A stretch of 64,000 bases of DNA from Gemmatimonadota bacterium (lineage in GTDB: Bacteria > Gemmatimonadota > Gemmatimonadetes > Gemmatimonadales > Gemmatimonadaceae). Position 1 is the first letter of the stretch, and the number at the start of each line of letters is the position of its first letter. Positions 2,979-32,893 of the stretch are shown one piece after another. The stretch is from assembly GCA_046732835.1 (NCBI GenBank), contig JBKPNY010000122.1:14004-78003 (forward strand), read 5' to 3'. The translations under genes were made by a program, and so were the position numbers. Under the pieces are notes generated by a model, which saw only the letters and a program-made list of their open reading frames with translations, ran no database searches and was not told the DNA's origin.

Positions 2979-3377
2979 ATGAGATGCCTCCAGACAGTCG
3001 CGATTGCATCAGTGTTTTTTTTCACGGCATGCGCCGGACAGAAGAGTTCTGGCCCGGGCATTCCGATAGAGCGCGATGTTATAACAGCAGACGAGATCGA
3101 GGCATCAAAGACGGAGAGCACCGCTTCGGCCTACGATGTTGTCAAGCGTCTGAGAGGCAACTTCCTGAGTTATCGTGGGCGTACAAGTCTGAAGAACACG
3201 TCGTCCCCTGATCCGACAGTGTATCTGGACGATCAAGCATATGGCCCAATCGCATCTCTGAGAAACATTCCAGCATCCCAAGTTGCGTATATCCGACTCT
3301 ACCGATCATGGGAGGCGGCGACCAAGTTCGGCATGGGAAACATGGGCGGGGTCATCGCGGTTGCAACTAAGCAGTAG
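2979..3377 (+). CDS. Small stand-alone TonB-receptor Plug-domain lipoprotein (no beta-barrel), paralog P1
   Basis: The ATG at 2979 is preceded by ggag. The N-terminus is MRCLQTVAIASVFFFTAC (lipobox). The body follows the Plug pattern: VITADEIE...AYDVVKRLRGNF...VYLDDQ...IPASQVAYIRLY...GGVIAVATK. At only about 132 aa there is no room for a barrel. Confidence 0.6.
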   Translation: MRCLQTVAIASVFFFTACAGQKSSGPGIPIERDVITADEIEASKTESTASAYDVVKRLRGNFLSYRGRTSLKNTSSPDPTVYLDDQAYGPIASLRNIPASQVAYIRLYRSWEAATKFGMGNMGGVIAVATKQ

Positions 3378-6184: not shown

Positions 6185-6412
6185 GCTGCGACAGCCGTTC
6201 GCCGATCTCTAACGGCCGTTCGCCGAAAACTTTGCAAGTTCTGCCAACAATTGAGCTTGCGGGCTTTTGTACCCCCGTACATTTTTCTGACACATTCCTT
6301 GCCGCAAGGCAATAACACGAATTCGCAATTCTGACCGGACTCCCAGCCGGTGGAATGGCGAGCTCGATGTTTTTGCTGTTTACGGCATCTCAGTTTCCAC
6401 GGGAGGATCGGC

Positions 6413-9400
6413 ATGAAAAAGGTTCGTAAGAGTCTTGCCGCACTTTCGCGCACCGCGCTGTTTCTGGGGCTGTTTGGAGCCTCGAGCGCACTGGCGCAAA
6501 ATGCGGTCATCACAGGTAAGATCACCAACGAGCAGGGGCAGCCGGTTGTAGGTGCCAACGTTGGCCTTCTCAACATGGGACTAGGCACAACGGCAAACTC
6601 GAATGGTGTGTACACGATCACTGTGCCCGACGACCGCGCGAGCGGCCAGCAGGCAACGCTGACCGTGCGTTTCATCGGTATGTCCCCAATCAGCCGCATC
6701 ATCCGCCTTACCCCGGGAAGCCAGAACATCGACTTCGCGATGAAGGCAGATCCGTTCCGCCTCGATGAAGTCGTCGTCACCGGCGTGAGCGCAGCAACAG
6801 AGCAGAAGAAGCTGACAGTTTCAGTTGCACACGTTGGCGAAGAGCAGCTCAAGCAGGTTCCTGCTTCATCACCTGTCGCAGCGCTCGCTGGAAAGGTCGC
6901 CGGCGCCAAGATCAACATCGGCTCGGGTAACCCGGGTGCCGCACCGACGATCCGCCTTCGCGGCTCGACGAACCTCGGCATCGGAAACTCGACTCCGGTC
7001 ATCATCGTCGACGGTGTTCTCACTCAGAACTCGATCGCCGACATCGATGCCAACGACATCGAGTCGGTCGAAGTTCTGAAGGGTGCCGCAGGCGCTTCGT
7101 TCTACGGCTCCGATGCCGCGAACGGTGTCATCAACATCACGACCAAGCGCGGCAAGAACCTGCCGGAAGACAAAGTGTCGTTCATGATCCGCTCGGAATA
7201 CGGCACGTCGTCACTTCAGAAATACATTCCGCTGGCTCACGACAATTTCTGGGAGCTCAATCCGGACGGAAGCATCCGCCTCGATGCAACCGGCGGCCGC
7301 GTGGTCAAGGCTGATCACTTTGCGGACAATCCTTATGCGACAACAGGCCCGAACGCCTGGCGCAACCAGCTCAAGGAATGGTCGAAGAACGGCGAGTTCA
7401 TCTCGGGCAACATTCAGCTCGGAATGCGTCACGGATCGACCAACTTCAACACGTCGTACACCTCCGATCACAATGCCGGTGTTCTGCCCCTTACCAAGGG
7501 TCAGTATCGTCAGAACATCCGCCTGAACGTCGATCAGGGACTGGGCGACAAGCTCGACTTCTCGTCGAGCATCACCTACGGCGTGAACAGAAACGACTAC
7601 GATCCAACTGATTCACAGTCGTGGTTCAACTTCATGCAGATGCCGCCCGACCTGGATCTGCGAAACCCGAATGGCAATGACACGGTAGCCTTCTTCCCGA
7701 AGCTTCCGACCACCAATTCGCCGAGCGCACGCGAGAACCCGCTCTACATTCTCGCGAACAATGACTTCCAGCTCCGCCGTGAGCGCATCATCGGCTCGCT
7801 GTCCGGCCGCTGGCGTCCGACCGACTGGCTCCGCGTCGAAACATCGTATGGCACGGACCGTCTCAATCGTCGCGAAAAGGATTACGATCGCCGTGGCTCA
7901 CTGGGAGAAGGCGGTCAGGCAATCCCTGGTAACATCAGCCAGTTCACGCTCAACAACGTTTCCGACAACGCGACTGTTAACGCTACGATCACCAAGCGAG
8001 TGGGCGAGCTTAACACCACGCTGCGCGGCGCGTACCTGTACGAGCAGAGCCGGAACGACAACTTCTTCGTATCGGGCACACGCTTCAACGTGACCGACGT
8101 TCCGGATCTTGGCGCACTCGATCCGACTCAGCTTGCAACGACGTCGCAGATCGAGATCGCACGCTCGAGCAACTACCTCGGCTCGGCGTCACTTGATTTC
8201 CGTGATCGCTATCTGGTCGACGGACTTGTTCGCAGCGACGGATCTTCACTGTTCGGTGAAGACGCTCGCCGCAACACGTTCTACAGAATCTCCGGTGCGT
8301 ATCGTATCGGCGAGGATCTGAAGATTCCTGGCGTGCAGGAGCTCAAGGTGCGCGCAGCTCGTGGAACCGCGGGACTCCGTCCCAACTTCCTCGATCAGTA
8401 CGAGTACTATACCGTCTCTGGTGGACAGATCTCGAAGACCCAGCTTGGAAACAAGAGCCTCAAGCCTGCAATCCAGACTGAGGACGAGTTCGGTCTCAAC
8501 GCTTCGTTTGCTCATCGCTTCGACCTCGAAGTCGTGCAGGCGAACCGCCTCACCAAGGGCGCTTTCCTCAACATCCCGCTGTCACTCGCGGCCTCCGGCG
8601 GATTCTCGTCGCAGGTTCAGAACGCGGCAGATGTGGAGGGAAAAACAACAGAGCTTTCGCTCAACACGCGCGTGTTCAGCCGTCCTGATTTCAGCTATGA
8701 CTTCACGCTGACGGGCGACCACACAACGCAGAAGATCAACAAGCTCGGCCGCGCTCCGTTCCGCGTGAACGCCGGTGGCCAGAGCCAGGACGTGTTCTAC
8801 TACAAGGAAGGCGAGAACCTCGGCGTGATCTACGGACAGCGTCTTGTCCGCACGTTCGCTGAGCTCAAGGACAACCCGGCGAACGCGAACGCAGTCGAGT
8901 CCGACTACGTCGTCAATCCGCTTGGACTCCTTGTAAAGGCAAGCACCCGTGGTCTCCCAACCGAGCGCCCGATTGTTTACACGGCGCCTGATGGCCAGAC
9001 AACGGTCAAGATTGGAGACGTGAATCCCAAGTTCAACTTTGGATTCGCGAACAACATCCGCTTCAAGGGCTTCGGTGTGTACGCACTGCTCGACGGCCAG
9101 CACGGCGGCGACGTGTACAACTTCACCAAGCAGTGGATGTTCCAGGATCTCCGTCACGGCGATTCCGACATGGCAGGCAAGCCGCAGGATCAGAAGATCG
9201 CGATGGACTTCTTCTCAGCGGGACTCTACAACGGTCTCGTTGCCAGCGACTACTTCGTCGAGGATGGTTCGTACGTGAAGCTCCGCGAGCTTTCGGTCAG
9301 CTACACGCTTGGCCAGAAGATGCTGGCGCAGACGGGCCTCGGCCGTATCACGAGCGGTGTCAAGCTCGCGCTCATCGGTCGCAACCTGTACACCTGGACC

Positions 9401-9517
9401 AATTACAGCGGCTTCGATCCAGAAGTTACGTCGGGCAACGACTTCAACTTCCGTATTGACGGCTTCCGTTATCCAAACTTCCGCACCGTTACCGGTCAGG
9501 TCGAGATCAGCTTCTGA
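6413..9517 (+). CDS. SusC/RagA-type TonB-dependent outer-membrane transporter (pair 2)
   Basis: The ATG at 6413 is preceded by gggagga and gives MKKVRKSLAALSRTALFLGLFGASSALA/QN. The protein has an N-terminal carboxypeptidase-regulatory-like domain, the TonB-box-like DEVVVTG, a Plug domain (VLKGAAGASFYGSDAANGVINITTKRG), a roughly 800-aa barrel and a terminal ...VEISF. Confidence 0.9.
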   Translation: MKKVRKSLAALSRTALFLGLFGASSALAQNAVITGKITNEQGQPVVGANVGLLNMGLGTTANSNGVYTITVPDDRASGQQATLTVRFIGMSPISRIIRLTPGSQNIDFAMKADPFRLDEVVVTGVSAATEQKKLTVSVAHVGEEQLKQVPASSPVAALAGKVAGAKINIGSGNPGAAPTIRLRGSTNLGIGNSTPVIIVDGVLTQNSIADIDANDIESVEVLKGAAGASFYGSDAANGVINITTKRGKNLPEDKVSFMIRSEYGTSSLQKYIPLAHDNFWELNPDGSIRLDATGGRVVKADHFADNPYATTGPNAWRNQLKEWSKNGEFISGNIQLGMRHGSTNFNTSYTSDHNAGVLPLTKGQYRQNIRLNVDQGLGDKLDFSSSITYGVNRNDYDPTDSQSWFNFMQMPPDLDLRNPNGNDTVAFFPKLPTTNSPSARENPLYILANNDFQLRRERIIGSLSGRWRPTDWLRVETSYGTDRLNRREKDYDRRGSLGEGGQAIPGNISQFTLNNVSDNATVNATITKRVGELNTTLRGAYLYEQSRNDNFFVSGTRFNVTDVPDLGALDPTQLATTSQIEIARSSNYLGSASLDFRDRYLVDGLVRSDGSSLFGEDARRNTFYRISGAYRIGEDLKIPGVQELKVRAARGTAGLRPNFLDQYEYYTVSGGQISKTQLGNKSLKPAIQTEDEFGLNASFAHRFDLEVVQANRLTKGAFLNIPLSLAASGGFSSQVQNAADVEGKTTELSLNTRVFSRPDFSYDFTLTGDHTTQKINKLGRAPFRVNAGGQSQDVFYYKEGENLGVIYGQRLVRTFAELKDNPANANAVESDYVVNPLGLLVKASTRGLPTERPIVYTAPDGQTTVKIGDVNPKFNFGFANNIRFKGFGVYALLDGQHGGDVYNFTKQWMFQDLRHGDSDMAGKPQDQKIAMDFFSAGLYNGLVASDYFVEDGSYVKLRELSVSYTLGQKMLAQTGLGRITSGVKLALIGRNLYTWTNYSGFDPEVTSGNDFNFRIDGFRYPNFRTVTGQVEISF

Positions 9518-9549: not shown

Positions 9550-11109
9550 ATGAGACCAATGAAAAAATTCCTTTCAGTCGCGAGTGCGGCGGCTCTTCTT
9601 CTCGGAAGCGCCTGCAACAATCTCGACGTAACCAATCCGAACAATCCGGATGTGGCGCGCGCACTGGCGTCACCCGAGGACGTGAAGAACATCGCGATCT
9701 CGACCATGAACTCGTGGTATCTCACGAGCACATACGTTGAGCCATACATCTCGATGTGCGTTACCGCGGATGCCTGCTCGGGCAACTTCGGAAACTTCGG
9801 CATGAGGTTCAACAACCTCGAGCCGCGCATTCCTTACGGCAACAACTCGGCAGGTGCTGATCGCACAGTCACCGAGTCGCCGTGGAACTTCAACTATCAG
9901 ACCTTGGGTGCAGCGAACGATGCCCTCCGTGCTTTTGCGGCAGGTATCAGCCTCGAGACTCCATCTGAGACGGCAAAGTTCAAATCGATCGCGCAGTTCA
10001 CGCAGGCCGCATCGATGATGAACCTTGCTCTCATCTTCGACAGAGCATTCGTCGTCGACGAGACCTTCGATGCAACCGCTGGTCCGCCGGAGCTCAAGCC
10101 TTACACCGAGGTTTCAGCAGCGGCTGCGGCAATGTTCGAAAAGACCATCGCCGACCTGAATGGTCAGAACGTGACGTACGATCCAACGGTGATTCCTACT
10201 ACCGTTGCGCTGACGTCGAGCAGACTTCAGCGGCTGTCGAACACGATGGAAGCGCTTCTCCTTGCCTACACCCCGCGTAAGGCTGCGGAAGTTGCCAGTG
10301 TAGACTGGGCGAAAGTTGCTTCGCTCGCCGACAAGGGAATCGGAACCGGCTCAGCCGGCGCTCCGTTCGACTTCATCGTGCAGGGTGACAACAACGTCTG
10401 GTACTCCTACATCGCGTTCTACGAAGATGAGAAGTCCTGGGTTTACGTTGACCAGCGCCTGATCCACAGAATGGACCCGAGCATTCCTGAGAAGTTCACC
10501 GGGACGATCGTTCCGCGCGGTACTTCACCTGATGCCAGGTACCTCTCGGATTACGGCTTCCAGAGCCCGGTCGTCGGAGATCCGAGCCGTGGTATTTACA
10601 TGCAGAGTCCGTTCTGGCACTCGCGTTATGTTGGACACGCGCGCCTTTCGGCGACTGCAGCCAGAACACCGGTACCTTACCTCCTCGCGGCAGAGAGCGA
10701 TCTCGTTCGCGCAGAGGCGTTGATCCGCAAGGCGGGACCTGATCTCGCAACTGCGGCAACACTCATCAACAACACCAGAGTGACGCGTGGTCACCTTCCT
10801 CCTGCTACCGCAGCGGAAGGAGCTACAACACTCCTGAGCTACATCGATTACGAGCGCGAGATCGAGCTGCACGCGACGAGCGGATTCACGCTCTTCCAGC
10901 GCAGACACGTCGACGGACTGCAGCCTGGCACGTACCGCCACCTGCCGATTCCGGCGAAGGAGCTCGAGACGCTTGCACTGCCGATCTACACCTTCGGTGG
11001 TGTTGGCAGCCCGGATCAGAACATACTGCTTCCTGATGGAACGCTGAGTGCACTTCGCTCGGCGCCGAAGCTTTCGAGAGCCCCGCTGTCTGAGGCAATC
11101 GAGCGCTAA
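9550..11109 (+). CDS. SusD/RagB-type outer-membrane lipoprotein (pair 2)
   Basis: The N-terminus is MRPMKKFLSVASAAALLLGSAC (lipobox); the start may be 9550 or 9559. The C-terminal part has AESDLVRAEALIRK...LINNTRVTRG, a SusD-like pattern. The gene starts 33 nt after the SusC stop. Confidence 0.75.
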   Translation: MRPMKKFLSVASAAALLLGSACNNLDVTNPNNPDVARALASPEDVKNIAISTMNSWYLTSTYVEPYISMCVTADACSGNFGNFGMRFNNLEPRIPYGNNSAGADRTVTESPWNFNYQTLGAANDALRAFAAGISLETPSETAKFKSIAQFTQAASMMNLALIFDRAFVVDETFDATAGPPELKPYTEVSAAAAAMFEKTIADLNGQNVTYDPTVIPTTVALTSSRLQRLSNTMEALLLAYTPRKAAEVASVDWAKVASLADKGIGTGSAGAPFDFIVQGDNNVWYSYIAFYEDEKSWVYVDQRLIHRMDPSIPEKFTGTIVPRGTSPDARYLSDYGFQSPVVGDPSRGIYMQSPFWHSRYVGHARLSATAARTPVPYLLAAESDLVRAEALIRKAGPDLATAATLINNTRVTRGHLPPATAAEGATTLLSYIDYEREIELHATSGFTLFQRRHVDGLQPGTYRHLPIPAKELETLALPIYTFGGVGSPDQNILLPDGTLSALRSAPKLSRAPLSEAIER

Positions 11110-18397: not shown

Positions 18398-18814
18398 TCA
18401 GCGTGTGTACAGCACTATTGCACCTGAAATTGGATCGCTGCCGATGTCTGACAGCACTACTGAAGCCCTGGAAGCCGACAGCCATTCCATGCGCTTGATC
18501 CCTGATGAGCTCAGGCTTCGCAGCGTTTCAGTTCCGCCGAGCTTGTTTCCGTCGAGGTAAACGAGCGTCACCTGATTGCGTGATGTGCCGCCGCCAATCG
18601 ACCCTGTTGCGCCTGCGCGCAGCCAGTGCGGCCGCAGACGGTAGATCAGGTCGTACACATTGTTCGACGGCGTCTGCGCGATTTCAACGCTCGTCACTTT
18701 ATCTGACGACGATTCACTTACGTTTGGCTTGGCGCCTCCACTCGACGACGCGCATGCTGCTGACATGAGCGCTCCTCCAGAGAGCGCGATGCTGAGTACC
18801 AGGCGACCTTTCAT
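18398..18814 (-). CDS. Small stand-alone TonB-receptor Plug-domain lipoprotein, paralog P2
   Basis: The N-terminus is MKGRLVLSIALSGGALMSAAC (lipobox). The Plug-like body is VTSVEIAQTPSNNVYDLIYRLRPHWL...LVYLDGNKLGG...IKRMEWLSA...GAIVLYTR. The gene lies 25 nt upstream of dnaE on the same strand and is divergent from the F2 fusion gene. Confidence 0.55.
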   Translation of the reverse strand: MKGRLVLSIALSGGALMSAACASSSGGAKPNVSESSSDKVTSVEIAQTPSNNVYDLIYRLRPHWLRAGATGSIGGGTSRNQVTLVYLDGNKLGGTETLRSLSSSGIKRMEWLSASRASVVLSDIGSDPISGAIVLYTR

Positions 18815-18944
18815 GAGTTTCCCCCTGCCGGACCAGAAGCGGTTTGCGTTCTCGGGAATCTGTGCGAGACCATACTATACGGAAAGATCGCATTGTGTGC
18901 CGATGTACCCTCCGCTATGCTTTCGTGAAAGGGACCGCATTGCC

Positions 18945-20099
18945 ATGACCTCAATGCTTTCTGTATCGCTCGCACAGACACTGCGCAAAGCGCTCGGCTG
19001 TGCTGCGGTCTGGCTCGCCGTATTCGCCGTTGATTTGCAGGCGCAGGCGTTCGGCGTGGTGTCCGGTGTGGTAACGGATTTCGCCGGCGCGCCGATTTCC
19101 AGCGCGGAGATCGTGATTGCCGGATTAGGGATTACTTCGCGAACAGACGACCTGGGTCGATTCCGCATCAGCTCGCCGATTGGTCTCGTCACGCTCAGCG
19201 CTCGTCGCATGGGATTTGAGCCCGCGACACGACAGGTTCAACTGGGTGGATCCAGTGAAGTGACCAATGTCGCGATCCAGCTCAAATCACTGCCGAGCGT
19301 TCTCAAGCCTGTGGTTGTGACAACGAACAAGATCGACTACACAGGAAGGCTCGCCGGTTATTACCACCGGCTCGAGAGCAGGAACGTCGGTTATTTCATC
19401 ACGAGGGATGAAATCGACAAGCAGAATCCGCGAACCATCACGCAGCTCCTTACTCACATACCGGCGATCAACGCCACGAAAATGAGATCGGGTGGGGGTG
19501 GCGTGCGAATGCGGGGACGTCAGTGCTGGCCACTGGTGTGGCTCGATGGACTGCAGATGGGTGCGGGAGAAGTCGATCTGGATGCGTTCCCGCCATCGTC
19601 TATTCAGGGGATCGAGATTTACCTCGGTTCGACAACAGCGCCCATTCGATACATGGCCAATCGCGACCAGTCGAGTTGTGGAACCATACTATTGTGGTCG
19701 CGTGGTCCCGATACGGATCCGGTTACCAGGCCTCGCCAGCAGCGGTTCGATCTGGAGCGGATGGTTGCGTCGCTCACAGTGTATACCGCCGATCAGGTGG
19801 ACAAACCGGCTTTGCCCGCGCCGCATTCTCAAACGAATGTGGATTATCCCCCGGCGATTTTTGCTGACGGACAGGGGGGGTCCGTGGTTGCGGAGTTCGT
19901 TGTCGACTCGGCAGGGCGCGTGGAGGAGGGAACTTTTGGGATTGTTTCGTCAACCCACCCTCTCCTGAGCGATGCGGTGAGACGGGCAGTCGAGGGAAGT
20001 ATCTACATCCCCGCGCAGCTCAAAGGTTCGCCCGTGCGTCAGGTGGTGGTGCAGCCGTTCTCATTCCCGCCAAGGCTGAAGAAAAAATCCCGCGGGTAA
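18945..20099 (+). CDS. Secreted fusion protein: carboxypeptidase-regulatory-like + Plug + TonB C-terminal domain, paralog F2
   Basis: The likely start is ATG 18945 (MTSMLSVSLAQTLRKALGCAAVWLAVFAVDLQAQA); the ORF-track start 18660 overlaps the divergent gene. The protein is colinear with F1: VSGVVTDFAG...DDLGRFRI, then GYFITRDEIDKQNPRTITQLLTHIPAI...VWLDGLQMG...IQGIEIYLG...GTILLWSR, then the C-terminal DYPPAIFADGQGGSVVAEFVVDSAGRVEEGTFGIVSSTHPLLSDAVRRAV...GSPVRQVVVQPFSF (TonB_C pattern). Confidence 0.65.
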   Translation: MTSMLSVSLAQTLRKALGCAAVWLAVFAVDLQAQAFGVVSGVVTDFAGAPISSAEIVIAGLGITSRTDDLGRFRISSPIGLVTLSARRMGFEPATRQVQLGGSSEVTNVAIQLKSLPSVLKPVVVTTNKIDYTGRLAGYYHRLESRNVGYFITRDEIDKQNPRTITQLLTHIPAINATKMRSGGGGVRMRGRQCWPLVWLDGLQMGAGEVDLDAFPPSSIQGIEIYLGSTTAPIRYMANRDQSSCGTILLWSRGPDTDPVTRPRQQRFDLERMVASLTVYTADQVDKPALPAPHSQTNVDYPPAIFADGQGGSVVAEFVVDSAGRVEEGTFGIVSSTHPLLSDAVRRAVEGSIYIPAQLKGSPVRQVVVQPFSFPPRLKKKSRG

Positions 20100-20231
20100 G
20101 CCCGGCGCCCCGCAAGATTTGCTTGCGGATTCACAACTTCCTTACATATTAGCGTAAATAAATGACCCTTCACCACGCTTCCCCTGAACCCAGGTGAAAG
20201 CGCGGTGATCGCTATTCGTGAGCCTTGTACT

Positions 20232-20247
20232 AGTCACGCGCGTGACT
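20232..20247. promoter_or_regulatory. Perfect 16-bp palindrome (candidate operator) in the leader of SusC pair 3
   Basis: agtcacgc|gcgtgact is a perfect palindrome, about 205 nt upstream of the SusC start at 20454. About one such palindrome is expected by chance per 64 kb, so only the intergenic position lends it support. Confidence 0.25.
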
Positions 20248-20453
20248 GACCGCACGTGTTTGCAGTTTTTCGTCTGAAAGTTTGGACGTCAGCAAGCGTG
20301 AAAAGGTTCCATCCGAATTTTCTACTTCTCAGAAAGGAGGGTCATCCCACAAACCCAGACTACTTGGTGTGCACAGCCCGGCCGGATACCGGCACAGTGG
20401 CGAAGTAAGCGAAGGGAAATCGGTAGTATCTCGCAAACCCCATTGAGGTACGT

Positions 20454-23400
20454 ATGAAGAAACTACTCCGTCCAACGAAGGTCCTCCTTCTGATTGCCGC
20501 TGCGCTCGCCGGTGTGTCACCGGCAGTTGCGCAAAGCCAGGGGGCGGTAATTTCCGGACGAGTGATGTCGGAGCAGGGACAGCCACTCGTCGGCGCAAAC
20601 GTCTACATCAACGACCTGAACATTTCGGTCGGCACTTCGCAGTCGGGCGCGTACACACTCAACATTCCGCAGGCACGTCTGAATGGTCAGACTGTGAACC
20701 TGCGTGTTCGCGCGATTGGTTATCAGCCGCAAACCCGGCAGATCGCGCTCACGGCTGGCTCGGTCAGCGTAAACTTCGACCTCCGCCGCGACGTCACGCA
20801 GCTTGGTGAAGTCGTCGTGACGGGCGTTGCGACTGCAACGGAGGCGATCAAGCTGCCGTTCACTGTCGCGCGTATCGACACCACGCTGATGCCCGTGTCG
20901 GGCTCGAATCCGATCTCGCAGCTGCAGGGAAAGATTCCTGGCGCGATGATTGTCGCGTCGTCCGGCCGCCCTGGCACAGCACCTTCAATCGTTCTGCGCG
21001 GACCCGTTTCGCTGGACGCTACGGGTCGCAGCCAGCAGCCACTGTATCTGCTCGACGGCGTTCCGCTTCAGGGTGGACTTCCTGACATCAACCCCGGCGA
21101 CATCGAGAACGTCGAAGTCGTGAAGGGCGCAGCCGCCGCATCGCTCTACGGTGCACGCGCTGGCGCCGGCGTCATCAACATCACCACGAAGAGTGGAAGG
21201 AATGCGCCACCCGGCCTTCGCTTTGGAGTGCGCAGCGAAGTCGGCGCAGGCGATATCGAGCACCAGTTCCCGCTCGCTACCCGCACAGCAATGAGTCTCG
21301 CCCCCGGCGGACAGCTCTACTGCAGCACCGAAGTCGTCGGTGGCTCGAGGTGTGGACGTTACATCAACTGGGATTCAGAAGTTCAGCGAATCAACAACAA
21401 CGGCGAGGATTTCTCCGGATCACCGCAGAACTTCCTGACCGAGGCGAGCCTCGCAGCAGCGCCGAACTACGACGCGATGAGCGGCTCATTTGTCATCAAT
21501 CGTTATTCGTCGCTCCGGGATCCGGTCGCACAGCTCGTCACGCCTTCGGTCTACGCGAACTCGAACATGGACATTCGCGGAAAGGTCAATAACACCGGCG
21601 TGTTTGCAAGCCTTGGCAACCTCACACAGCAGGGTGCGATCCAGGGAATGGGTGGGTTCGTGAGGAACTCCGCTCGACTGAACATCGATCAGCGTTTTGG
21701 TGACCGTATCAGCACCAACATCAACAGCTTCTACAGCCAGAGCGCGGATCACGGTTCGAATCTCGAGGCTGAGGGCGCCGGTTCAACGAGTCCCTTCTTC
21801 ACGATCACGCGCGCGCCGTATGTCGCTGACATCGAAGCTCGGGATAATCTTGGCCGAATCGTCGTGCGTCATAACCCGACAGCGCAAGGGGTGCAGAACT
21901 TCAACCCGCTGTACGCGGCGTTCTATAACAGGCGTACTGACAGAAGCACCCGCTTTGTCGGCGGTGCGAGCTCGAAGTACACCCCGCTCGACTGGCTCAA
22001 CCTCGAAGCAAATGTCGGCTACGATCGATCGACCGGCATCTTCACTCAACAGCGTGACCGCGGCTGGCGTGTCACTGCGTCGAACCCGACAACTTCTGCC
22101 GGGTTCATTCAGAACGGAAGCACTGACAACGAGCAGCTTACAACGGGCTTGAGTGCAACTGCGACGCACACCTTCCTCAGCGACCTCAACGCAACACTCA
22201 CAGGTCGATATATCTACGGAGATCAAACACTTCGTACCCAGGATTTGCAGGGTGTTGACCTGGTCGTCGCGGGCCTCGAAACCGCGGACGCCGCCACGAA
22301 GAACTTTGCGATTGGGTCCGGCGTGCAGAAAATCCGCGACATGGGTTACTTCCTTGGCGCCGATTTCGATTTAAAGGATCGCTATGTTCTGAACGGGCTG
22401 GTCCGTCGCGACGGAAGCTCGCTCTTCGGATCAGGTAACCGCTGGCAGACATTCGGCCGTGTTGCGGCAGCGTGGATTACTTCACGTGAGCCATGGTGGC
22501 CGGCACCGGATGCGTTGAGCCTGTTCAAGCTCCGTGCATCACGTGGATCGACCGGTCAGCGTCCGCGCTTCAGCGCACAGTATGAAACGTTCACCATTGG
22601 AACCGGTGGAACCTTGAACCCCGCGTTCCTTGGCAACAAGAATCTCAAGCCTGAGATCAACACCGAAACCGAGCTCGGAACCGATCTCGAGTTCTTCCAT
22701 CGCATTGGCCTCAACATCTCGTACGCGAAGGCTGTCGTCGACGATCAGATTCTTCCAGTTCGTGCTTCGACTGCGACGGGATTTCAGCAGCAGTGGCTTA
22801 ACGCCGGTGAGATTACGAACAAGACGTGGGAAGGAACACTTACTGTCCCGGTCATCCAGCGTCGCAACTTCAGCTGGACAAGTCGCCTGATCTACGATCA
22901 GACGCGTTCGGTCATCACAAGACTCGATGTCCCTGACTTCACGGGCGACATCACAGCCGGCAACGCGTTCACCGTCTTCAAGTTCCGCGAGGGCGAGAAG
23001 ATCGGCACGATGTACGGCGCCACATTCATTCGTAACTGCTCGCAGCTCCCTGCTGCGTTTGCATCACAGTGCTCGATGAGTGCGGGGGATCTCAGCTCAG
23101 CGTATCGTCCGAATGACGAGGGATACATCGTCTGGGTTGGTCAGGGCAACCTGCCATCCGAAGGCGTGACGAAAAACCTCTGGCGCTCGCAGATTCCGCT
23201 CGGTCAGGGACCATACGGCAACCGAGTCAACTGGGGCATGCCGATCGTGCAGCGCGACGAATCCACCGGCAACGTTTCCAACGTCGCCGTCGGCAACGGA
23301 CTTCCCAAGTATCACTGGGGCCTTTCGCAGAGCGTCGATATCGGCCGGTTCAACATCTACGGATTGCTCGACGCAGCGCACGGTCAGAAGCTCTTCAATA

Positions 23401-23834
23401 TTCAGGAGGCATGGTCTCTCGCCGACCTGCAGAGCGGTGTCGTGAATCAGGAAGGCAAGAGCGTCGAGAGCGCGAAGCCGATTGGATACTACTGGCGTCA
23501 GGGACCGTCGCTGTCACCGACGGCTGGCTCAACTGCCGGCATCGGCGGCTTCTACGACCTGCTTGGACCGAACAGCTACAACATGCAGGACGCAAGCTAC
23601 GTCAAGCTGCGTGAAGCATCGGTCAACGTCAGGCTCGGCGCAATTGGTGGAACCGGCGACTGGAAAGTCGGCGTCGTTGGCAGAAATCTGAAGACGTGGA
23701 CTGACTTCCGCGGCTTCGACCCCGAGTCCGGCAACACGACGGGAGCATTCAACTCCGCCGCGTTGACGGGTGTTGCAGGCTACCGCTATCCGAAGATGCG
23801 GACCTACACAGTACAGGTTTCCACTTCGTTCTAA
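20454..23834 (+). CDS. SusC/RagA-type TonB-dependent outer-membrane transporter (pair 3)
   Basis: The ATG is preceded by gaggt. The signal peptide is MKKLLRPTKVLLLIAAALAGVSPAVA/QS. The protein has a carboxypeptidase-regulatory-like domain, GEVVVTG, a Plug domain (VVKGAAAASLYGARAGAGVINITTKSG), a long barrel and a terminal ...VQVSTSF. Confidence 0.9.
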   Translation: MKKLLRPTKVLLLIAAALAGVSPAVAQSQGAVISGRVMSEQGQPLVGANVYINDLNISVGTSQSGAYTLNIPQARLNGQTVNLRVRAIGYQPQTRQIALTAGSVSVNFDLRRDVTQLGEVVVTGVATATEAIKLPFTVARIDTTLMPVSGSNPISQLQGKIPGAMIVASSGRPGTAPSIVLRGPVSLDATGRSQQPLYLLDGVPLQGGLPDINPGDIENVEVVKGAAAASLYGARAGAGVINITTKSGRNAPPGLRFGVRSEVGAGDIEHQFPLATRTAMSLAPGGQLYCSTEVVGGSRCGRYINWDSEVQRINNNGEDFSGSPQNFLTEASLAAAPNYDAMSGSFVINRYSSLRDPVAQLVTPSVYANSNMDIRGKVNNTGVFASLGNLTQQGAIQGMGGFVRNSARLNIDQRFGDRISTNINSFYSQSADHGSNLEAEGAGSTSPFFTITRAPYVADIEARDNLGRIVVRHNPTAQGVQNFNPLYAAFYNRRTDRSTRFVGGASSKYTPLDWLNLEANVGYDRSTGIFTQQRDRGWRVTASNPTTSAGFIQNGSTDNEQLTTGLSATATHTFLSDLNATLTGRYIYGDQTLRTQDLQGVDLVVAGLETADAATKNFAIGSGVQKIRDMGYFLGADFDLKDRYVLNGLVRRDGSSLFGSGNRWQTFGRVAAAWITSREPWWPAPDALSLFKLRASRGSTGQRPRFSAQYETFTIGTGGTLNPAFLGNKNLKPEINTETELGTDLEFFHRIGLNISYAKAVVDDQILPVRASTATGFQQQWLNAGEITNKTWEGTLTVPVIQRRNFSWTSRLIYDQTRSVITRLDVPDFTGDITAGNAFTVFKFREGEKIGTMYGATFIRNCSQLPAAFASQCSMSAGDLSSAYRPNDEGYIVWVGQGNLPSEGVTKNLWRSQIPLGQGPYGNRVNWGMPIVQRDESTGNVSNVAVGNGLPKYHWGLSQSVDIGRFNIYGLLDAAHGQKLFNIQEAWSLADLQSGVVNQEGKSVESAKPIGYYWRQGPSLSPTAGSTAGIGGFYDLLGPNSYNMQDASYVKLREASVNVRLGAIGGTGDWKVGVVGRNLKTWTDFRGFDPESGNTTGAFNSAALTGVAGYRYPKMRTYTVQVSTSF

Positions 23835-23905
23835 AAAAAAGGAATGACATCGGCGGGCAGCCCGTGAGTGATCACGGACTGCCTCGCCTAACCCTTAATG
23901 AATCA

Positions 23906-25582
23906 ATGAGGCTTTTGATGCGTCACCGAACGAAAGTTCAACTCATATCTGCTGCGGTATTGAGTGCGTCGATGGCGATTGTCGCGTGTACCGACAATCC
24001 GCTCGACGTCAGGAACCAGCAGAACCCGGACGTCTCGAAGGTTTATGGAAGTCCCAAGGACGTCGAGACGATCGTATCGAAATTGTTCCAGCAGCTGTGG
24101 AACGCTCAGCAGGCAAACACCGGAATCGGTGTACAGACTATGGTAATGTCGTTCGAGAGTCACTCCGCACTCGCGAACTTCGGACTTGGAGCTCGCGCTG
24201 CAATTCCGCGCGGTCTGATCAGCAATGCGCTTGGCAACGCCAACCAGACCGAGAACTTCAACGACTTCGACGGGCTGCAGAGAAATGCGCGCAGCGCGGC
24301 AAATGCAATCGCCGCGATCTACGCCTTCAACGCTGCTTCACCGGCACAATCGATCGGGTCCCCGGCGCGCGATGTCAGAGCGAAGGCATTTGGCTACTTT
24401 GAGCTCGGATATGCGCTAGGGAACGTGGCGCTGATCTACGATTCGGCGTCCATCATTCTACCCAGTACTCCAAACGGGGAAATCCCCGCTCTCTCTGCGG
24501 CGAAGGACGTGATGGCCGCGGCGCTGCAGATGATGGACTCGGCTCTGGCTTATGCGGTCTCGCCGGACGTTGCGAACGGTAGCAATGGTTTCCCGATTCC
24601 TGGTGGATGGGTTTCAGGACCGGACCTGCCAGCAGCATCGTTCATCAAGCTTGTTCGCTCGTACAAGGCGCGGTTCCGTGCAAACGTTTCCCGCACGCCG
24701 GCCGATCGCGTTGCGGTTAACTGGGATGCGGTCATCGCTGATACGCAGAACGGTATTACCGCTGACTTCATAGTCAACGCCGATGCGACCCTCGGATGGG
24801 CGCTCGGCTGGCGCAGCCAGCTTGGCGTAGATGCAACGTGGAGCCAGATGACTCCGATGATTCTTGGAATGGCCGACACCACGCTGGCGTACGATGCCTG
24901 GCTCGCGGCTCCGCTCGACAAGCGCACACCGTTCCTTCTTCGCACGCCTGACAAGCGGTTCCCATCCGGTGAGACGCGTGCAATTCAGTCAGCAATTCAG
25001 GGATCAAGCCGCGCGGGCACACCAGCGGGCTCGATTCTTTATTTCATCAATCGCCCGTCGGGAGACGACAAGGTCGCCGAGCCGTGGGGGACGTGGTGGT
25101 ATGACAACTGGCGCTTCTGGGGTCCCAGAGCGGCCGGCGGCAACGGACCCGTAACCGCTTTCTCGGTTGCAGAAAACGACCTGCTCCAGGCCGAAGGCCA
25201 ATATCGCAAGGGCAACGTCGCTGCGACGACTGCGCTCATCGACAAGACTCGCGTTCGCGCAGGTCTGCCGGCGCTTTCGGGTGTCGTGACGACTCTTACG
25301 GGCACGGTACCAGGTGGAAGTGCCTGCGTGCCGCGCGTTCCGCAGGCGCCAGGCTACACATCAACTGCCTGCGGCAGTCTTCTCGAGGCATTGAAGTGGG
25401 AGAAGAGAGTAGAGACGTCATTCACCGGATACGCGCAGTGGTGGCTGGATTCGCGGGGCTGGGGTGATCTCGTGGAAGGCACAGCCCTCGAGTGGGCGGT
25501 TCCATGGCAGGAGCTGTTCGCGCGACTTGGTGACACCTACACGAACACTTTAAGGGCCGCAAAGGGCACTTACGGTCTTTAG
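23906..25582 (+). CDS. SusD/RagB-type outer-membrane lipoprotein (pair 3)
   Basis: MRLLMRHRTKVQLISAAVLSASMAIVAC carries the lipobox; ATG 23906 or 23918 is possible, and the GTG 23864 of the ORF track is less likely. The C-terminal part has ENDLLQAEGQYRKGNVAATTALIDKTRVRAGLP, a SusD-like pattern. Confidence 0.7.
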   Translation: MRLLMRHRTKVQLISAAVLSASMAIVACTDNPLDVRNQQNPDVSKVYGSPKDVETIVSKLFQQLWNAQQANTGIGVQTMVMSFESHSALANFGLGARAAIPRGLISNALGNANQTENFNDFDGLQRNARSAANAIAAIYAFNAASPAQSIGSPARDVRAKAFGYFELGYALGNVALIYDSASIILPSTPNGEIPALSAAKDVMAAALQMMDSALAYAVSPDVANGSNGFPIPGGWVSGPDLPAASFIKLVRSYKARFRANVSRTPADRVAVNWDAVIADTQNGITADFIVNADATLGWALGWRSQLGVDATWSQMTPMILGMADTTLAYDAWLAAPLDKRTPFLLRTPDKRFPSGETRAIQSAIQGSSRAGTPAGSILYFINRPSGDDKVAEPWGTWWYDNWRFWGPRAAGGNGPVTAFSVAENDLLQAEGQYRKGNVAATTALIDKTRVRAGLPALSGVVTTLTGTVPGGSACVPRVPQAPGYTSTACGSLLEALKWEKRVETSFTGYAQWWLDSRGWGDLVEGTALEWAVPWQELFARLGDTYTNTLRAAKGTYGL

Positions 25583-25590: not shown

Positions 25591-26055
25591 GTGAGAAGTT
25601 CGAAGATTCTGCGAGCATGCGTGTTGAGTTTTCTGACCGGCGTATCCACGGCGTGTTATGTCTACACGCCCGTGGCGTCGCCACCCGCGCAGGGATCGCA
25701 GCTGCGGCTGGATTTGAACGACCGGGGTCGAGTTGGCCTCGGAGGACAGATCGGGGCTTCGGGAAGTGCAGTCGAGGGACTGCTGCAACCCGGTCCCGAT
25801 TCGATCTTCACTCTGAAAGTTGTTTCTGTGAGTTACCTGAATGGGCAGCGGAATCAGTGGACGGGAGAACCACTCTCGGTTTCACGCGATTTCGTGCGGG
25901 ACGTGAGAACGCGTCAATTCTCAAAGACCCGGACTGCCTTGACGGTGGGATCGATCGCTGCGGCCGCGGTGGCTTTCATCGTGACCCGCGGTCTGGTTGG
26001 AAGCGGGTCAGCCGGAAAGGATGGGGGCAACCCTCCGCCGGGCGGGGAGTCATGA
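25591..26055 (+). CDS. Hypothetical lipoprotein with a C-terminal hydrophobic helix
   Basis: The GTG start lies 9 nt after the SusD stop. The N-terminus is MRSSKILRACVLSFLTGVSTAC (lipobox). A C-terminal segment TALTVGSIAAAAVAFIVT is followed by a Gly/Pro tail. I recognise no family. Confidence 0.5.
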   Translation: MRSSKILRACVLSFLTGVSTACYVYTPVASPPAQGSQLRLDLNDRGRVGLGGQIGASGSAVEGLLQPGPDSIFTLKVVSVSYLNGQRNQWTGEPLSVSRDFVRDVRTRQFSKTRTALTVGSIAAAAVAFIVTRGLVGSGSAGKDGGNPPPGGES

Positions 26056-26126
26056 AAAAACTCCTTCACTCAGGTTCTCGCAGCTCGTCAATAACACTAT
26101 CAACGTCATTTTCTGGAGTTTCCATA

Positions 26127-26933
26127 ATGCGTTTCTCTCGTCTCGTACTGCTCAGCGTTGTTGTGGGTATCGCAGCGGCCTGCGAGAGCGATAAGGTCAC
26201 CACGCCGAGCACGCCTCCGCATTCGGATCTGCGTTTCATAAGCGCAGTCGCCGACACGGGCGCTGTAGATATTCGGTTTGTCGACCAGCTCGATCTCTCG
26301 CCGTTCGCGAACACTCTCGCATTCAGAGCATCGTCGTTCACGGGATATCAACCGGCCGAAGCAAAGGCCCGCCATCTCCGCGTTTTTCCGACGAGCCTGA
26401 ACATTGCCATCACGCAGCAGGTTCTACTCGACACCACCATCACGATCCCTGAGGGGCAGCGAATCACTTTACTGCTCACCGGCCCGTCGAGAACGGCAGG
26501 GCAGCTCAAGTTCATAATGATCAATGACGACGCAGCTGCGCCGGCAGCCAATCAGATCAGCGTCAGAACTGTGAACGCTTCAACGGGTGCAATTTCGGCG
26601 TTCCTTGTCGACACTACGACATCTGCTGTGGCGGGTACGCCGACATTCGACAACGTCGCCAGCTACACTGCGAGCGCTTACGTTGGGCGCGCAACCGGTA
26701 AGGCGGCCGTTCGATTTACCGATGTAGGCACACTCACGGTTAATGCGTCGCAGAATGGCCCACTGGCACCGGCTGCCATTGTCGGCGCATTGCCTGCCGC
26801 CGGACTGACATCATCCGGAACGGTTTTCTCGGTTTATTACTTCCCGAAAGCTCGCGCCGGATCAGTCTCGGCTCCCGGCGCAGTGTGGTTCGTCGATCGC
26901 AACCCCTGCGATGGACCTTGCACCAGCAACTAG
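26127..26933 (+). CDS. DUF4397-like lipoprotein
   Basis: MRFSRLVLLSVVVGIAAAC carries the lipobox. The repeated pattern LRFISAVADTGAVDIRFVD... / ISVRTVNASTGAISAFLVD... is typical of DUF4397. An alternative start is ATG 26052, which overlaps the previous stop as ATGA. The 25617 start of the ORF track is a frame artefact. Confidence 0.55.
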   Translation: MRFSRLVLLSVVVGIAAACESDKVTTPSTPPHSDLRFISAVADTGAVDIRFVDQLDLSPFANTLAFRASSFTGYQPAEAKARHLRVFPTSLNIAITQQVLLDTTITIPEGQRITLLLTGPSRTAGQLKFIMINDDAAAPAANQISVRTVNASTGAISAFLVDTTTSAVAGTPTFDNVASYTASAYVGRATGKAAVRFTDVGTLTVNASQNGPLAPAAIVGALPAAGLTSSGTVFSVYYFPKARAGSVSAPGAVWFVDRNPCDGPCTSN

Positions 26934-31400: not shown

Positions 31401-31454
31401 CTCACGCTCCCGCCCTCACGAACGTGGACGGGTCGCATCAACGTCACCTTTTAA
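28425..31454 (+). CDS. SusC/RagA-type TonB-dependent outer-membrane transporter (pair 4)
   Basis: The ATG is preceded by gaggagg. The signal peptide is ...MMAAPSAKA/QT. The protein has a carboxypeptidase-regulatory-like domain (INGRVVDAVSGSPINGAQV...NDGRFRIAGVRAGTYQLRVARIGY), a Plug domain (VLKGPAAGALYGTAAANGVIQITTKRG), a barrel and a terminal ...GRINVTF. Confidence 0.9.
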   Translation: MRKSKFGLRALSLFWLMVLAVMMAAPSAKAQTAAINGRVVDAVSGSPINGAQVLIVGTTRGAAAGNDGRFRIAGVRAGTYQLRVARIGYKAVTQTVTLGGTDLSGIEFSLAPVAVTLDQVVTTATGETTRKREQGNVVGTLTPEPAKLASAGNVTQLLTGRIPGLDVATTGGTIGSSARLRIRGASSLSLSNDPLLIIDGIRVDNSSASSTIGVGGQTPSRFNDINSEDIEKVDVLKGPAAGALYGTAAANGVIQITTKRGRVGKTRFTAFSEYGTIKDHTKFPLNFAQIGRTTAGARTTNCNLDNQTRNLCTPLLDSLVSYSPLVSYNPFITGQRDAFGLSAIGGNDRVTYYVGGNYDRQQGVFDANNDQRAGGRLNLSAQLRDNWDIQIGSNYLADHLRLPQNDNNILGIVSSGILGSAFDDSIPGKACPAPGCSHGYLNGQIPQVLERVWFTRQDIQRFQNNITSNYQPLRWLRATGTFGLDYLGRHDNEIIPPASVFFGALPDGQRSSNPYSIYTYTAQGNLVGTWTPLPAISSTTTAGFGFTKALVRGTQAFGAKLLGGTSSLAGATARFAVNEVNTDNKTLGYFASEEIGWRDRVFVNGALRNDKNSAFGQDFGSITYPSVGASWVVSEEGFFPKTDVVTSLRLRAANGRSGRQPNFRDAITFFNATTVTVSNADVPGIAIGGTGNIALKPERSTETEFGADLGLIKHRVNFEYTHYSKKTNDLLIAVPLPPSLGLSTSQFQNLGEVTNKGNEFTLDANVIDTDPISFRLIGTASSNSNKLISMGLIPGSTTPVPPITVNTQQKHVAGFPLGSYWQKSITFADANNDSIIARSEIKLSDTAVYLGNPLPKREMSISPTVTVMKYLRVSALIDRKTGYKLFNNTRRFHCSFSTCEESFVKQRSLADQAAAVAIALGTDAGYIEDADFTKLREMSFTILAPEAFAHRLGLQNLDFTIAGRNLHTWTKYTGFDPEVNSVAGSNFSTSEFLTLPPSRTWTGRINVTF

Positions 31455-31471
31455 CCGTACCGACGGAGGCA

Positions 31472-32893
31472 ATGATGACAAGAACATATTTCGCCCGTCG
31501 GCGCACGGGCTTCGTCTCACTCGCGGTCTTCGCCGCGCTCACCACAGTGACGTCGTGTGACAGTAAAGAGATCCTCAGCGTTACTGACCCGGATGTTGCG
31601 AGACCGGCTTCACTGGATGATCGATCGGCGCTGCCCGCACTTCGCGCTGGCGCAATCGGCTCCTTCGGCACCGCCTTCAACGGGCAGAATTCCGACGAAG
31701 AACAGGTGCATTTGTCTGCTTCACTTGGAGACGAGTTCATCAACACCGAAACTTTCCCCACACGCATCGAGTTCGATCAAAGAGCCCAGACAATCGGCAA
31801 CACGAGCCTTGTAGGAACGTTCCTCGATCTCAATCGCGCGCGTGGTCTGGCGCAACGCTCTATTGCCGGAATTCAGAAGCTCGCTATCAACTCGGCTGAC
31901 AGTGCTGGGTTACCTGAGGTGCTGGCGCTCAATGGCCTGGCGTATGTTCTCTTTGCGGAGAACTATTGTGGCGCAGTTCCCCTCAGCGTAGTGAACGATG
32001 ATGGCTCGTTTACTTACGGTGCCGCACTTACGACGGTCCAGCAGCTCGACAGCGCAACCTCGAAGTTCAACCAGGCACTGGCGGTGCAGGGAGCCAATCT
32101 TACGTCGGCTTTCAAGCAGCTCGCTCAGATTGGCAAGGGGCGCGCGTTGCTCGATAAGGGTGATTACGCCGGCGCCGCCGCTGCCGTCGCCGGTGTGTCT
32201 ACGACGTTCCAGTACATCTACCAGCACTCGGAGACAACGGGCGCTCAGAACAACGGAACATGGGCACTCACCACCAACGTCGGCCGTTTCGGAGTGGCGG
32301 ATCGGAAAGGCGGAAATGGACTTCCTTACCAGACGGATGGAGATACCAAGAACGCCGGCTTCGATCCGCGCGTCGCAAATGCCATTCGCCCGAACAATGG
32401 CGGTCGCGGATTCGATAATGGAATTCCCGGTGGTGAGTTCCAGTTCGTGCAACAGAAGTATCCAATCCGTGCAGCTCCCTCGATCATTGCTGATGGCGTT
32501 GAGGCGCGACTGATCGAAGCGGAAGCCGCACTTCAGACCAATCCTGACGCTGCACTGGTGATACTCAACGCCTTGAGAAGCAACTCAGCTCTCCTGGCAC
32601 TGCGGGGGTATGCCGCCAATTCACTTCCGCCGCTCACACTGCAGGCGACCAAGGCCGCTCAGGTCGACCAGTTATTCAAGGAGAGGGCGTACTGGTTGTT
32701 CCTGACGTCTCACCGGCTTGGTGATATGCGGCGATTGATTCGTCAATACAACAGGCCAGCCAATACCGTTTTTCCGACGGGTGCTTACTTCAAAGGCGGT
32801 ACGTACGGAACTGATGTGAGCTCGCCCGTGCCACAGCGGGAACAGAACAACCCGAGCTACGATCCGTCTGCCTGCAAGCTCGATCAGGCGTAG
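31472..32893 (+). CDS. SusD/RagB-type outer-membrane lipoprotein (pair 4)
   Basis: The ATG at 31472 is preceded by ggagg and gives MMTRTYFARRRTGFVSLAVFAALTTVTSC (lipobox). VEARLIEAEAAL...LNALRSN is a SusD-like pattern. The 31424 start of the ORF track overlaps the SusC end. Confidence 0.7.
   Translation: MMTRTYFARRRTGFVSLAVFAALTTVTSCDSKEILSVTDPDVARPASLDDRSALPALRAGAIGSFGTAFNGQNSDEEQVHLSASLGDEFINTETFPTRIEFDQRAQTIGNTSLVGTFLDLNRARGLAQRSIAGIQKLAINSADSAGLPEVLALNGLAYVLFAENYCGAVPLSVVNDDGSFTYGAALTTVQQLDSATSKFNQALAVQGANLTSAFKQLAQIGKGRALLDKGDYAGAAAAVAGVSTTFQYIYQHSETTGAQNNGTWALTTNVGRFGVADRKGGNGLPYQTDGDTKNAGFDPRVANAIRPNNGGRGFDNGIPGGEFQFVQQKYPIRAAPSIIADGVEARLIEAEAALQTNPDAALVILNALRSNSALLALRGYAANSLPPLTLQATKAAQVDQLFKERAYWLFLTSHRLGDMRRLIRQYNRPANTVFPTGAYFKGGTYGTDVSSPVPQREQNNPSYDPSACKLDQA

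Follow-up and report, generated by a model that had tools for sequence, protein, structure and literature searches.

A SusC-type N-terminus joined to a TonB C-terminal domain in a predicted periplasmic protein of Gemmatimonadaceae

The protein described here, fusB, is encoded in a 64,000-nucleotide stretch of DNA from a Gemmatimonadota bacterium of the family Gemmatimonadaceae (GenBank assembly GCA_046732835.1, contig JBKPNY010000122.1, positions 14,004 to 78,003 of the forward strand). This whole stretch is called the window, and positions are counted from its first letter. fusB is the N-terminus of a SusC transporter joined to the C-terminus of TonB, with both partners of the TonB-transporter contact in one chain. 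It is neither a TonB nor a TonB-dependent transporter by membership, yet it holds bona fide domains of both. Its gene lies directly ahead of the third SusC/SusD-like (SusCD) pair of the window, whose SusC-like member is called SusC3, and is divergent from the gene of a small Plug lipoprotein, smallB. A paralog, fusA, stands ahead of another SusC-like gene of the window.

The two origins of fusB can be read from alignments within its own genome. Through its first ~260 residues, fusB runs colinear with the neighbouring SusC (28% identity, E 1e-10, 222 columns, fusB residues 33-232). This alignment runs from the AQ cleavage position through the N-terminal extension (NTE), places LKPVVVT of fusB on the LGEVVVT TonB box of the transporter, and continues to the LDG and IE.IE motifs. 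Over its last ~100 residues, fusB shares 42% identity (E 6e-20) with one of the canonical TonBs from elsewhere in the genome, and the YP motif is kept. Both fusB and fusA exceed the Pfam gathering scores for CarboxypepD_reg, Plug and TonB_C; the TonB_C domain of fusB scores 32.3 bits with PF03544 (cut-off 24.6) and 30.0 bits with TIGR01352 (cut-off 27.1). The NCBIfam TonB C-terminal model is matched by both proteins, while both fall far under the full-length SusC model, TIGR04056, whose cut-off is 368 bits and on which fusB reaches 25.7. Neither fusB nor fusA has a barrel, and the barrel model PF00593 has no match at the fusB locus. The two proteins have the same series of parts: signal peptide, SusC-type NTE, TonB-box-like strand, Plug core with the conserved Cys pair, and TonB_C domain (Table 1).

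The same parts were recovered in a structural model. AlphaFold2, using 101 homologs, gave a model of fusB with a mean predicted local distance difference test score (pLDDT) of 83.9. It comprises an N-terminal helix, a beta-sandwich (residues 36-112), an alpha/beta domain (137-252), a disordered segment (260-273) and a further alpha/beta domain (280-374), with pLDDT above 90 in the NTE. When searched against the PDB with Foldseek, the NTE matched the SusC NTE 9hfj and carboxypeptidase D transthyretin-like domains, and the Plug matched the plugs of BtuB, Cir and PhuR. For TonB_C, both Foldseek and profile searches returned TonB C-terminal domains (6i97_D from a FoxA complex, 6fip, 2k9k and 2gsk_B). 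The sequence profile of the fusion family, compared with the PDB, matched SusC N-termini, the BtuB plug and TonB C-terminal domains. Among 106 family representatives at 50% identity, the AQ site, the L..V.V box, both Cys, the YP motif and the final TonB_C strand are at least 80% conserved. Within the fusB-clade alignment, conservation is highest in the Plug core, whose invariant columns include the Cys pair; in the fusion family, the linker is the second least conserved segment, only the signal peptide being less conserved. From the sequence, a disulfide between Cys194 and Cys245 probably staples the Plug core. This conserved pair, together with the extra helix at residues 137-145, may allow barrel-less plugs to stand alone.

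An earlier note on this DNA, made from the sequence alone, had described fusB and fusA as two copies of a Plug-TonB_C fusion and had argued that the architecture is functional rather than a gene fragment. Both claims are borne out. The pairwise alignment that the note had called for (BLASTP, 35% identity over 375 columns, E 4e-68) shows the two to be colinear, true paralogs, with all of the quoted motifs in place: GYFITR[DE].[IL]DK, both Cys, SSTH.L[FL][ST]DAV and PVRQ[IV]. More than 1,000 homologs have the same domain set, those with a name being called 'TonB family protein' of Gemmatimonadaceae. The representatives retrieved at E<=1e-30 fall into 152 clusters at 50% identity, and most are 360-430 amino acids long. 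Compared with orthologs, both genes have a ratio of nonsynonymous to synonymous substitution (dN/dS) of 0.10-0.25 at saturated dS, and fusB is under purifying selection. The reading frames that the note had given for fusB (18945-20099) and smallB (18398-18814, minus strand) are correct, as is the distance of 354 nucleotides between fusB and the SusC-like gene at 20454. Circularly permuted relatives of the fusion were also considered and rejected, since the three candidates, in which TonB_C lies near the N-terminus, have three tandem TonB_C domains and no Plug. These proteins (P0316, P0321 and P0338, 355-407 amino acids) are unusual in themselves and are among the closest relatives of the TonB_C domain of the fusion.

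Compared with TonB, fusB has the TonB_C domain and its YP motif and lacks the anchor motif and the spacer. The genome (4.2 Mb, 402 contigs) encodes four canonical TonBs of 227-266 amino acids, each with an S-x3-H motif (SALTH, SIGLH, SLIFH and SVGIH) and a Pro/Lys-rich spacer; one of these genes lies beside exbB-exbD-exbD on contig C136. The S-x3-H anchor is absent from fusB and fusA, where the hydrophobic segment contains no His and ends in AQA like that of SusC. A proline-rich spacer is also absent from fusB, the folded NTE and Plug standing between the signal peptide and TonB_C, and the nearby genes that were checked, in the window and at related loci, include neither exbB nor exbD. These four features lead to the prediction that a Sec signal is cleaved from the N-terminus and that mature fusB is soluble in the periplasm. 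Since the genome has four canonical TonBs, fusB is not the TonB or motor of the cell and is an accessory protein. On contig C136 (16144-19329), the tonB-exbB-exbD-exbD cluster is followed by a gene for a 181-residue Pro/Gly-rich protein with a TonB_C-like end, which may be a second TonB-like gene of that operon.

The likenesses to described systems fall on either side of the linker. With SusC/RagA transporters (Bacteroides thetaiotaomicron Bt1763, PDB 6ZAZ; NTE 6YTC/9HFJ), fusB shares the AQ-type signal, an NTE with a TonB box right behind it, and the Plug motifs RG, LDG and IEGIE. It differs from them in that an additional helix follows its TonB box and in its conserved Cys pair; at 384 residues it has no 22-strand barrel, TonB_C being found where the barrel would begin. 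In Bt1763, the TonB box DEVVVTG likewise comes after the NTE (PMC7782687). With canonical TonB and its dedicated paralogs (E. coli TonB, Serratia HasB and 11 B. thetaiotaomicron homologs), fusB shares the C-terminal domain, the YP motif and the final beta-strand, and the genes of the fusB and fusA clades likewise adjoin the gene of a client transporter. Unlike these TonBs, it has no S-x3-H anchor, proline-rich spacer or exbBD partner, is predicted to be cleaved, soluble and periplasmic, and carries a TonB box, which TonB itself normally binds. TonB_C domains are found outside TonB in the BlaR1/M56-TonB_C proteins of Bacteroidota. A TonB_C-type domain also acts as a docking module in GltG and GltJ of the Agl-Glt gliding machinery of Myxococcus (PMC11761067). 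As in fusB, TonB_C in these proteins lies outside a classical TonB and presumably grips a beta-strand motif of an outer-membrane partner; unlike fusB, they are membrane-anchored, have unrelated N-terminal parts, and are in no case fused to a transporter plug. In the literature, no paper was found on the Plug-TonB_C architecture, on stand-alone plug proteins, or on SusCD systems of Gemmatimonas.

The genes around fusB form a conserved module. Using fusB-type peptide patterns, 53 loci were retrieved from species genomes, a sample biased toward the fusB clade. In a maximum-likelihood tree this clade is well supported and contains 43 rows, 42 of them informative when neighbours were mapped by tblastn. 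A SusC-like gene starts at most 1.2 kb downstream on the same strand in 41 of the 42, and the orthologous order of fusB, SusC3, SusD-like gene, small lipoprotein and DUF4397 gene is present at 34 fusB-clade loci. A subclade of 7 precedes a different type of SusC, ~28% identical to SusC3; the adjacency was kept through this change of partner, which argues for function over inherited synteny. In two related loci the fusB ortholog is split over several reading frames (L053:9899-10997 and L049:5607-6634), which reflects frameshifts, pseudogenes or long-read assembly errors.

Table 1. Features of the fusB region and related barrel-less Plug genes. Positions refer to the window unless prefixed with a contig handle of the same genome.
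Feature	Position	Strand	Description
smallA	2967-3377	+	Small Plug lipoprotein downstream of SusCD pair 1; Pfam Plug E 1.2e-4, 23.0 bits (cut-off 23.9)
fusA	5057-6184	+	375 amino acids; paralog with the architecture of fusB; ~170 nucleotides upstream of SusC-like gene 6350-9517
smallB	18398-18814	-	138-residue lipoprotein; Cys21 in lipobox-like LMSAAC, Ser/Gly tether, minimal Plug core only
smallB/fusB intergenic region	18815-18944		130 nucleotides between the divergent starts; presumed to hold both promoters
fusB	18945-20099	+	ATG at 18945, stop ending at 20099; 384 amino acids
fusB signal peptide, residues 1-35	18945-19049	+	Basic n-region, hydrophobic core, AQA at the cleavage position
fusB NTE, residues 36-113	19050-19283	+	Carboxypeptidase-regulatory-like, Ig/transthyretin-type beta-sandwich; Pfam PF13620 E 2e-12
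fusB TonB-box-like strand, residues 119-127	19299-19325	+	VLKPVVVTT, column for column with QLGEVVVTG of the adjacent SusC
fusB Plug core, residues 137-258	19353-19718	+	Pfam PF07715 E 5.6e-12; family-specific helix 137-145; Cys194/Cys245
fusB flexible linker, residues 259-279	19719-19781	+	AlphaFold2 pLDDT <50 at residues 260-273
fusB TonB C-terminal domain, residues 280-375	19782-20069	+	YP motif, last beta-strand VRQVVVQPFSF; Pfam PF03544 E 1.4e-7
fusB-SusC3 spacer	20100-20453		354 nucleotides; 7-bp hairpin right after the fusB stop
SusC3	20454-23834	+	SusC/RagA-type TonB-dependent transporter; TIGR04056 423 bits (cut-off 368); Pfam NTE and Plug; NTE, TonB box, Plug and barrel complete
Divergent SusD-like lipoprotein	23864-25582	+	Family profile matches only SusD structures in PDB; best 6z8i_A E 3.7e-6
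Small lipoprotein of the module	25591-26055	+	After the SusD-like gene in most of 34 module loci; no Pfam match
DUF4397 lipoprotein	26052-26933	+	Last module gene; PF14344 E 3.9e-16; position conserved
Putative aminopeptidase PF10023	26990-28081		E 9e-87; next after the DUF4397 gene
smallC	32949-33395	-	Small Plug lipoprotein convergent with SusCD pair 4; Pfam Plug E 2.5e-8, 34.8 bits (cut-off 23.9)
NTE-Plug gene	C122:5184-5858	-	Barrel-less, no TonB_C
NTE-Plug gene	C296:1574-2269	-	Barrel-less, no TonB_C
NTE-Plug gene	C2:30285-30983	-	Barrel-less, no TonB_C
NTE-Plug gene	C142:45465-46103	-	Barrel-less, no TonB_C
NTE-Plug gene	C363:13612-14349	+	Barrel-less, no TonB_C
NTE-Plug gene	C402:20882-21601	-	Barrel-less, no TonB_C

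A SusC-like gene and an adjacent SusD-like gene, the pair that makes a SusCD module, are both present behind fusB. The SusD-like protein has no Pfam or NCBIfam match, and its listed homologs are all 'hypothetical' (120 of 120); its homology to SusD is seen only through the family profile, in the C-terminal third. Lipoproteins at the SusD position at 9550-11109, 31424-32893 and 1377-2846 also have no Pfam or NCBIfam match. Judged by sequence profile, the SusD-position lipoproteins of the window belong to a divergent SusD lineage beyond current models. No glycan-degrading enzyme and no dedicated regulator was found in the conserved module (fusB, SusC, SusD-like, small lipoprotein, DUF4397, smallB). 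As the module has no such enzyme and is followed by the putative PF10023 aminopeptidase, a peptide substrate is conceivable for SusCD pair 3.

The divergent gene, smallB, is the other recurrent partner of fusB. It is divergent from fusB at 27 loci, and at 3 loci that are more distant it immediately follows the DUF4397 gene, on the plus strand, so that smallB travels with the fusB module and not with dnaE. The earlier note had found it odd that an envelope protein should head a dnaE-accA run on the minus strand. The position is real, with dnaE starting 25 nucleotides 3' of the smallB stop on the same strand, but it reflects local synteny rather than a functional oddity: dnaE adjoins the pair in only ~14 of the 53 loci, and a functional link to dnaE was rejected on this ground.

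By sequence criteria smallB is a lipoprotein with predicted lipidation, Cys21 being invariant in 59 sequences of its family and L/V-[ST]-A-C being present in most members. The 73 relatives of smallB, ~135 amino acids long, are all 'hypothetical protein' of Gemmatimonadaceae, and the family core reads D.VTS.EI...YDL..RLRP.WL...LVYLDG...L..L....I..M......A......G....GAI...T. The protein itself has no Pfam or NCBIfam match, Plug PF07715 giving none at E<=0.01. Nevertheless, the description of smallB as little more than a Plug-like module holds by profile and fold. By hhalign (probability 73%, E 3e-5), the smallB family profile and the Plug region of the fusions align in register, Pfam Plug is matched by 7 of 59 family members, the window paralog smallC among them, and smallA aligns with smallB by BLASTP at E 2e-6. 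An AlphaFold2 model of smallB (pLDDT 73.9) has only plugs of TonB-dependent transporters among its top 50 PDB matches; the best, SusC 8aa4_A, is of moderate strength (E 7.9e-4, TM-score to the query ~0.46). The VTSVEI of smallB aligns on the first plug strand and not on the TonB box, so smallB is without NTE, TonB box and Cys pair. Three more small Plug lipoproteins were seen elsewhere in the genome, one at C22:~10500-10950 on the minus strand and two in tandem at C371:10213-11011 on the plus strand. In the C22 protein, the Plug is much closer to the canonical form (Pfam E 5.7e-11, motifs IRIRG and ANGVIKITMKK).

In the intergenic region shared by smallB and fusB, one sigma-70-like site was found, for the minus strand, at 18903-18874. 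Across 28 orthologous divergent spacers, the 8-mer CTACCATA occurs in 11 and ACAATAGT in 9; the counts are strand-collapsed, the complements being TATGGTAG and ACTATTGT, respectively. Neither exact 8-mer was located in the divergent spacer of the window itself (18815-18944). These recurring 8-mers could be -10-like promoter elements or an operator.

fusB and smallB belong to a wider set of barrel-less plugs. Pfam Plug is matched 34 times in the genome, and ~14 Plug-type genes have no barrel: the 2 fusions, 6 NTE-Plug proteins and 6 small Plug lipoproteins, several of the last having been found only by tblastn or the family profile. The six NTE-Plug proteins start with a signal peptide and contain between one and three NTE-like domains, then a TonB-box-like strand and a Plug that shares the Cys pair; they have no TonB_C, and each ends in C-G-x-[IV]-x-[IL]-W-[ST]-[KR]. 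In related genomes, an NTE-Plug gene is often convergent at the 3' end of SusC-SusD-lipoprotein modules (for example at L005, L006, L019, L023, L036, and G004 at C29). Contig C122 of the genome studied here carries five consecutive SusC/SusD-like pairs with one barrel-less Plug gene beside each, except that pair 3 has two, fusB and smallB. No plug-less TonB-type barrel was found in the PF00593 and PF07715 inventories of the genome; the barrels without a Pfam Plug match still carry plug-like sequence between NTE and barrel, and a plug-less barrel was therefore rejected as the partner of these proteins. In the passage of PMC11658791 that cites Usher et al. 2001, isolated plugs of model transporters behave as unfolded proteins and keep weak ligand binding. 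Given that isolated model plugs are unfolded, plug domains as now understood would not lead one to expect barrel-less plug proteins.

From its domains, fusB is tentatively proposed to be a periplasmic modulator that acts at the contact of the TonB box with the C-terminal domain of TonB, a reading to which we give a little less than an even chance. After export via Sec, fusB would be soluble in the periplasm, a ~20-residue linker joining its SusC-like part to TonB_C. The TonB_C domain would bind a TonB box by beta-strand addition, either that of the neighbouring SusC or its own in cis; the linker could reach the TonB box, as both ends of the plug emerge on the same face. The four canonical TonBs would in turn bind the TonB box of fusB. 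Through such binding, fusB would modulate the energisation of the adjacent SusC, in the simplest form as a competitive brake or gate, alternatively as a relay or adaptor. smallB would be the partner inherited together with fusB, a minimal plug that is anchored in the outer membrane and lacks a TonB box. We infer all of these binding events, and likewise the direction of the effect. The brake form is drawn by analogy to artificial periplasmic TonB fragments in E. coli: Howard and colleagues are said to have found in 2001 that periplasmic TonB C-terminal fragments inhibit TonB-dependent transport there in a dominant-negative manner. Like fusB, these fragments are an exported TonB_C without a link to the ExbBD motor; they are laboratory constructs, whereas fusB occurs naturally, is conserved, carries NTE, TonB box and Plug in addition, and has a specific partner in the genome.

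A bolder and unlikely extension holds that there is an undescribed periplasmic control layer for TonB-dependent import in Gemmatimonadaceae, with fusB as a self-latching component. Its three barrel-less plug formats would be a lipid-anchored minimal plug, an NTE-TonB box-plug protein and an NTE-TonB box-plug-TonB_C protein. In such a layer, the TonB_C domain of fusB would stay latched on the TonB box of fusB itself until passed on to that of the cognate SusC, and would thereby gate or relay the pull of TonB, with the small plug lipoprotein as a docking site on the outer-membrane side.

Several observations weigh against the modulator reading. The predicted template modelling score (pTM) of the fusB model is 0.55, the domain arrangement thus being without confidence, and pLDDT is ~69 at the TonB box. 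The spacer behind fusB, with its hairpin after the fusB stop, is always long (327-549 nucleotides in 33 orthologous loci) and poorly conserved in sequence, save for a hairpin half-site and a TGAGGTA..ATG ribosome-binding region, which suggests separate transcription of fusB and the SusC operon. A regulatory RNA in this 354-nucleotide leader was rejected, given the poor conservation and the lack of any Rfam match in it. The link to SusC also fails in other clades. Among 20 further full-length homologs of other clades (33-41% identity), taken directly from whole genomes, 19 have no SusC-like gene within ~9 kb, their neighbours varying among M28 peptidase, multicopper oxidase, ThrE and amidohydrolases. 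The exception (L064, from another genus) is a fusA ortholog followed by orthologs of the SusC and SusD of fusA. Conversely, SusC3-type genes (at least 40% identity) are present in 70 of 151 species-level family genomes, and many genomes with them have no fusion at all, including G133 of the same genus; the fusion is thus dispensable for the SusC3 type of transporter.

These data set the reach of the claim, made in the earlier note from two loci, that the fusion works together with SusC-type transporters. The link stands for the fusB clade, with 41 of 42 informative loci, and for the fusA lineage, in both of which it is strong; it does not stand as a property of the architecture as a whole. The full-length fusion is present in about 74 of the 151 genomes (counted from a listing) and a fusB-type copy (at least 47% identity) in only 8 of the 151 besides its own, while a TIGR04056 scan with ~5 candidates scored per genome found SusC-type genes in 149. 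G050, a complete family genome of 4.6 Mb, has one copy of the fusion. The genome studied here has 2 fusions against ~11-14 SusC-like genes. In a phylum-wide sample the fusion was found in 21 of 201 genomes, 20 of the same family and 1 of a sister family. The Plug-TonB_C architecture is essentially confined to Gemmatimonadaceae and is a family-level invention.

Other explanations of fusB can be weighed on the same evidence. It might be a dedicated alternative TonB, its N-terminus an uncleaved anchor and its NTE and Plug a replacement for the proline-rich spacer, that energises the adjacent SusC. The 'TonB family protein' of the public records would fit, as would the genuine TonB_C domain and the place of the gene directly upstream of a putative client. 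This explanation is nonetheless improbable, given a conserved AQ/AQA cleavage-type site as in SusC in place of the S-x3-H of all four canonical TonBs, the absence of a proline-rich spacer and of exbB or exbD among the nearby genes checked, and a TonB box and plug for which a TonB has no need. Equally doubtful is a periplasmic receiver or hand-off protein, whose Plug would bind the imported ligand while TonB_C docks on the TonB box of SusC, so that cargo is caught as it leaves the barrel. The extreme conservation of the Plug core in the fusB clade, loop residues included, the lack of a periplasmic binding protein or enzyme in the module, and the weak ligand binding of isolated plugs mentioned above all speak for it; yet in most clades the same architecture lies away from any transporter gene, and the small and NTE-Plug relatives have no TonB_C with which to dock.

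A split transporter or plug exchange, with the barrel-less Plugs (fusB, smallB and relatives) inserting in trans into a plug-less barrel or an emptied SusC, would account for ~14 barrel-less Plug genes in one genome. Separately exported plug and barrel of FhuA reportedly reconstitute in vivo, a result of 2003 ascribed to Braun and colleagues. Such exchange is very unlikely for fusB, because the adjacent SusC already comes with a full Plug, the genome inventory contains no plug-less TonB-type barrel, and a plug that is lipid-anchored or tailed with TonB_C would be hard to thread into a barrel. That fusB is a functionless, decaying SusC remnant fused by accident to a TonB fragment is scarcely credible. 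The missing barrel and the broken gene of the two loci L049 and L053 point that way; against this stand more than 1,000 intact homologs in 152 clusters, full-length copies in about half of the family genomes, the low dN/dS, the invariant Cys pair and motifs, and the conserved synteny, and the remnant reading is effectively refuted by these conservation data.

fusB bears on how TonB is allocated among dozens of transporters and on the role of the SusC NTE. In Bacteroides, deletion of the NTE abolishes growth on levan, the substrate of the transporter, for a reason that is not known (PMC7782687). In fusB, both partners of the TonB-transporter handshake are covalently joined in a protein that is predicted to be soluble, under selection, and encoded beside a specific SusCD module. 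With three small soluble domains and a defined candidate client, it offers a natural and tractable reagent. The finding also exposes a family of barrel-less plugs, ~14 in this genome, that are now annotated 'TonB family protein' or 'hypothetical'. In this soil bacterium of the family Gemmatimonadaceae, the conserved gene set ahead of SusC3 probably tunes how the importer is powered.

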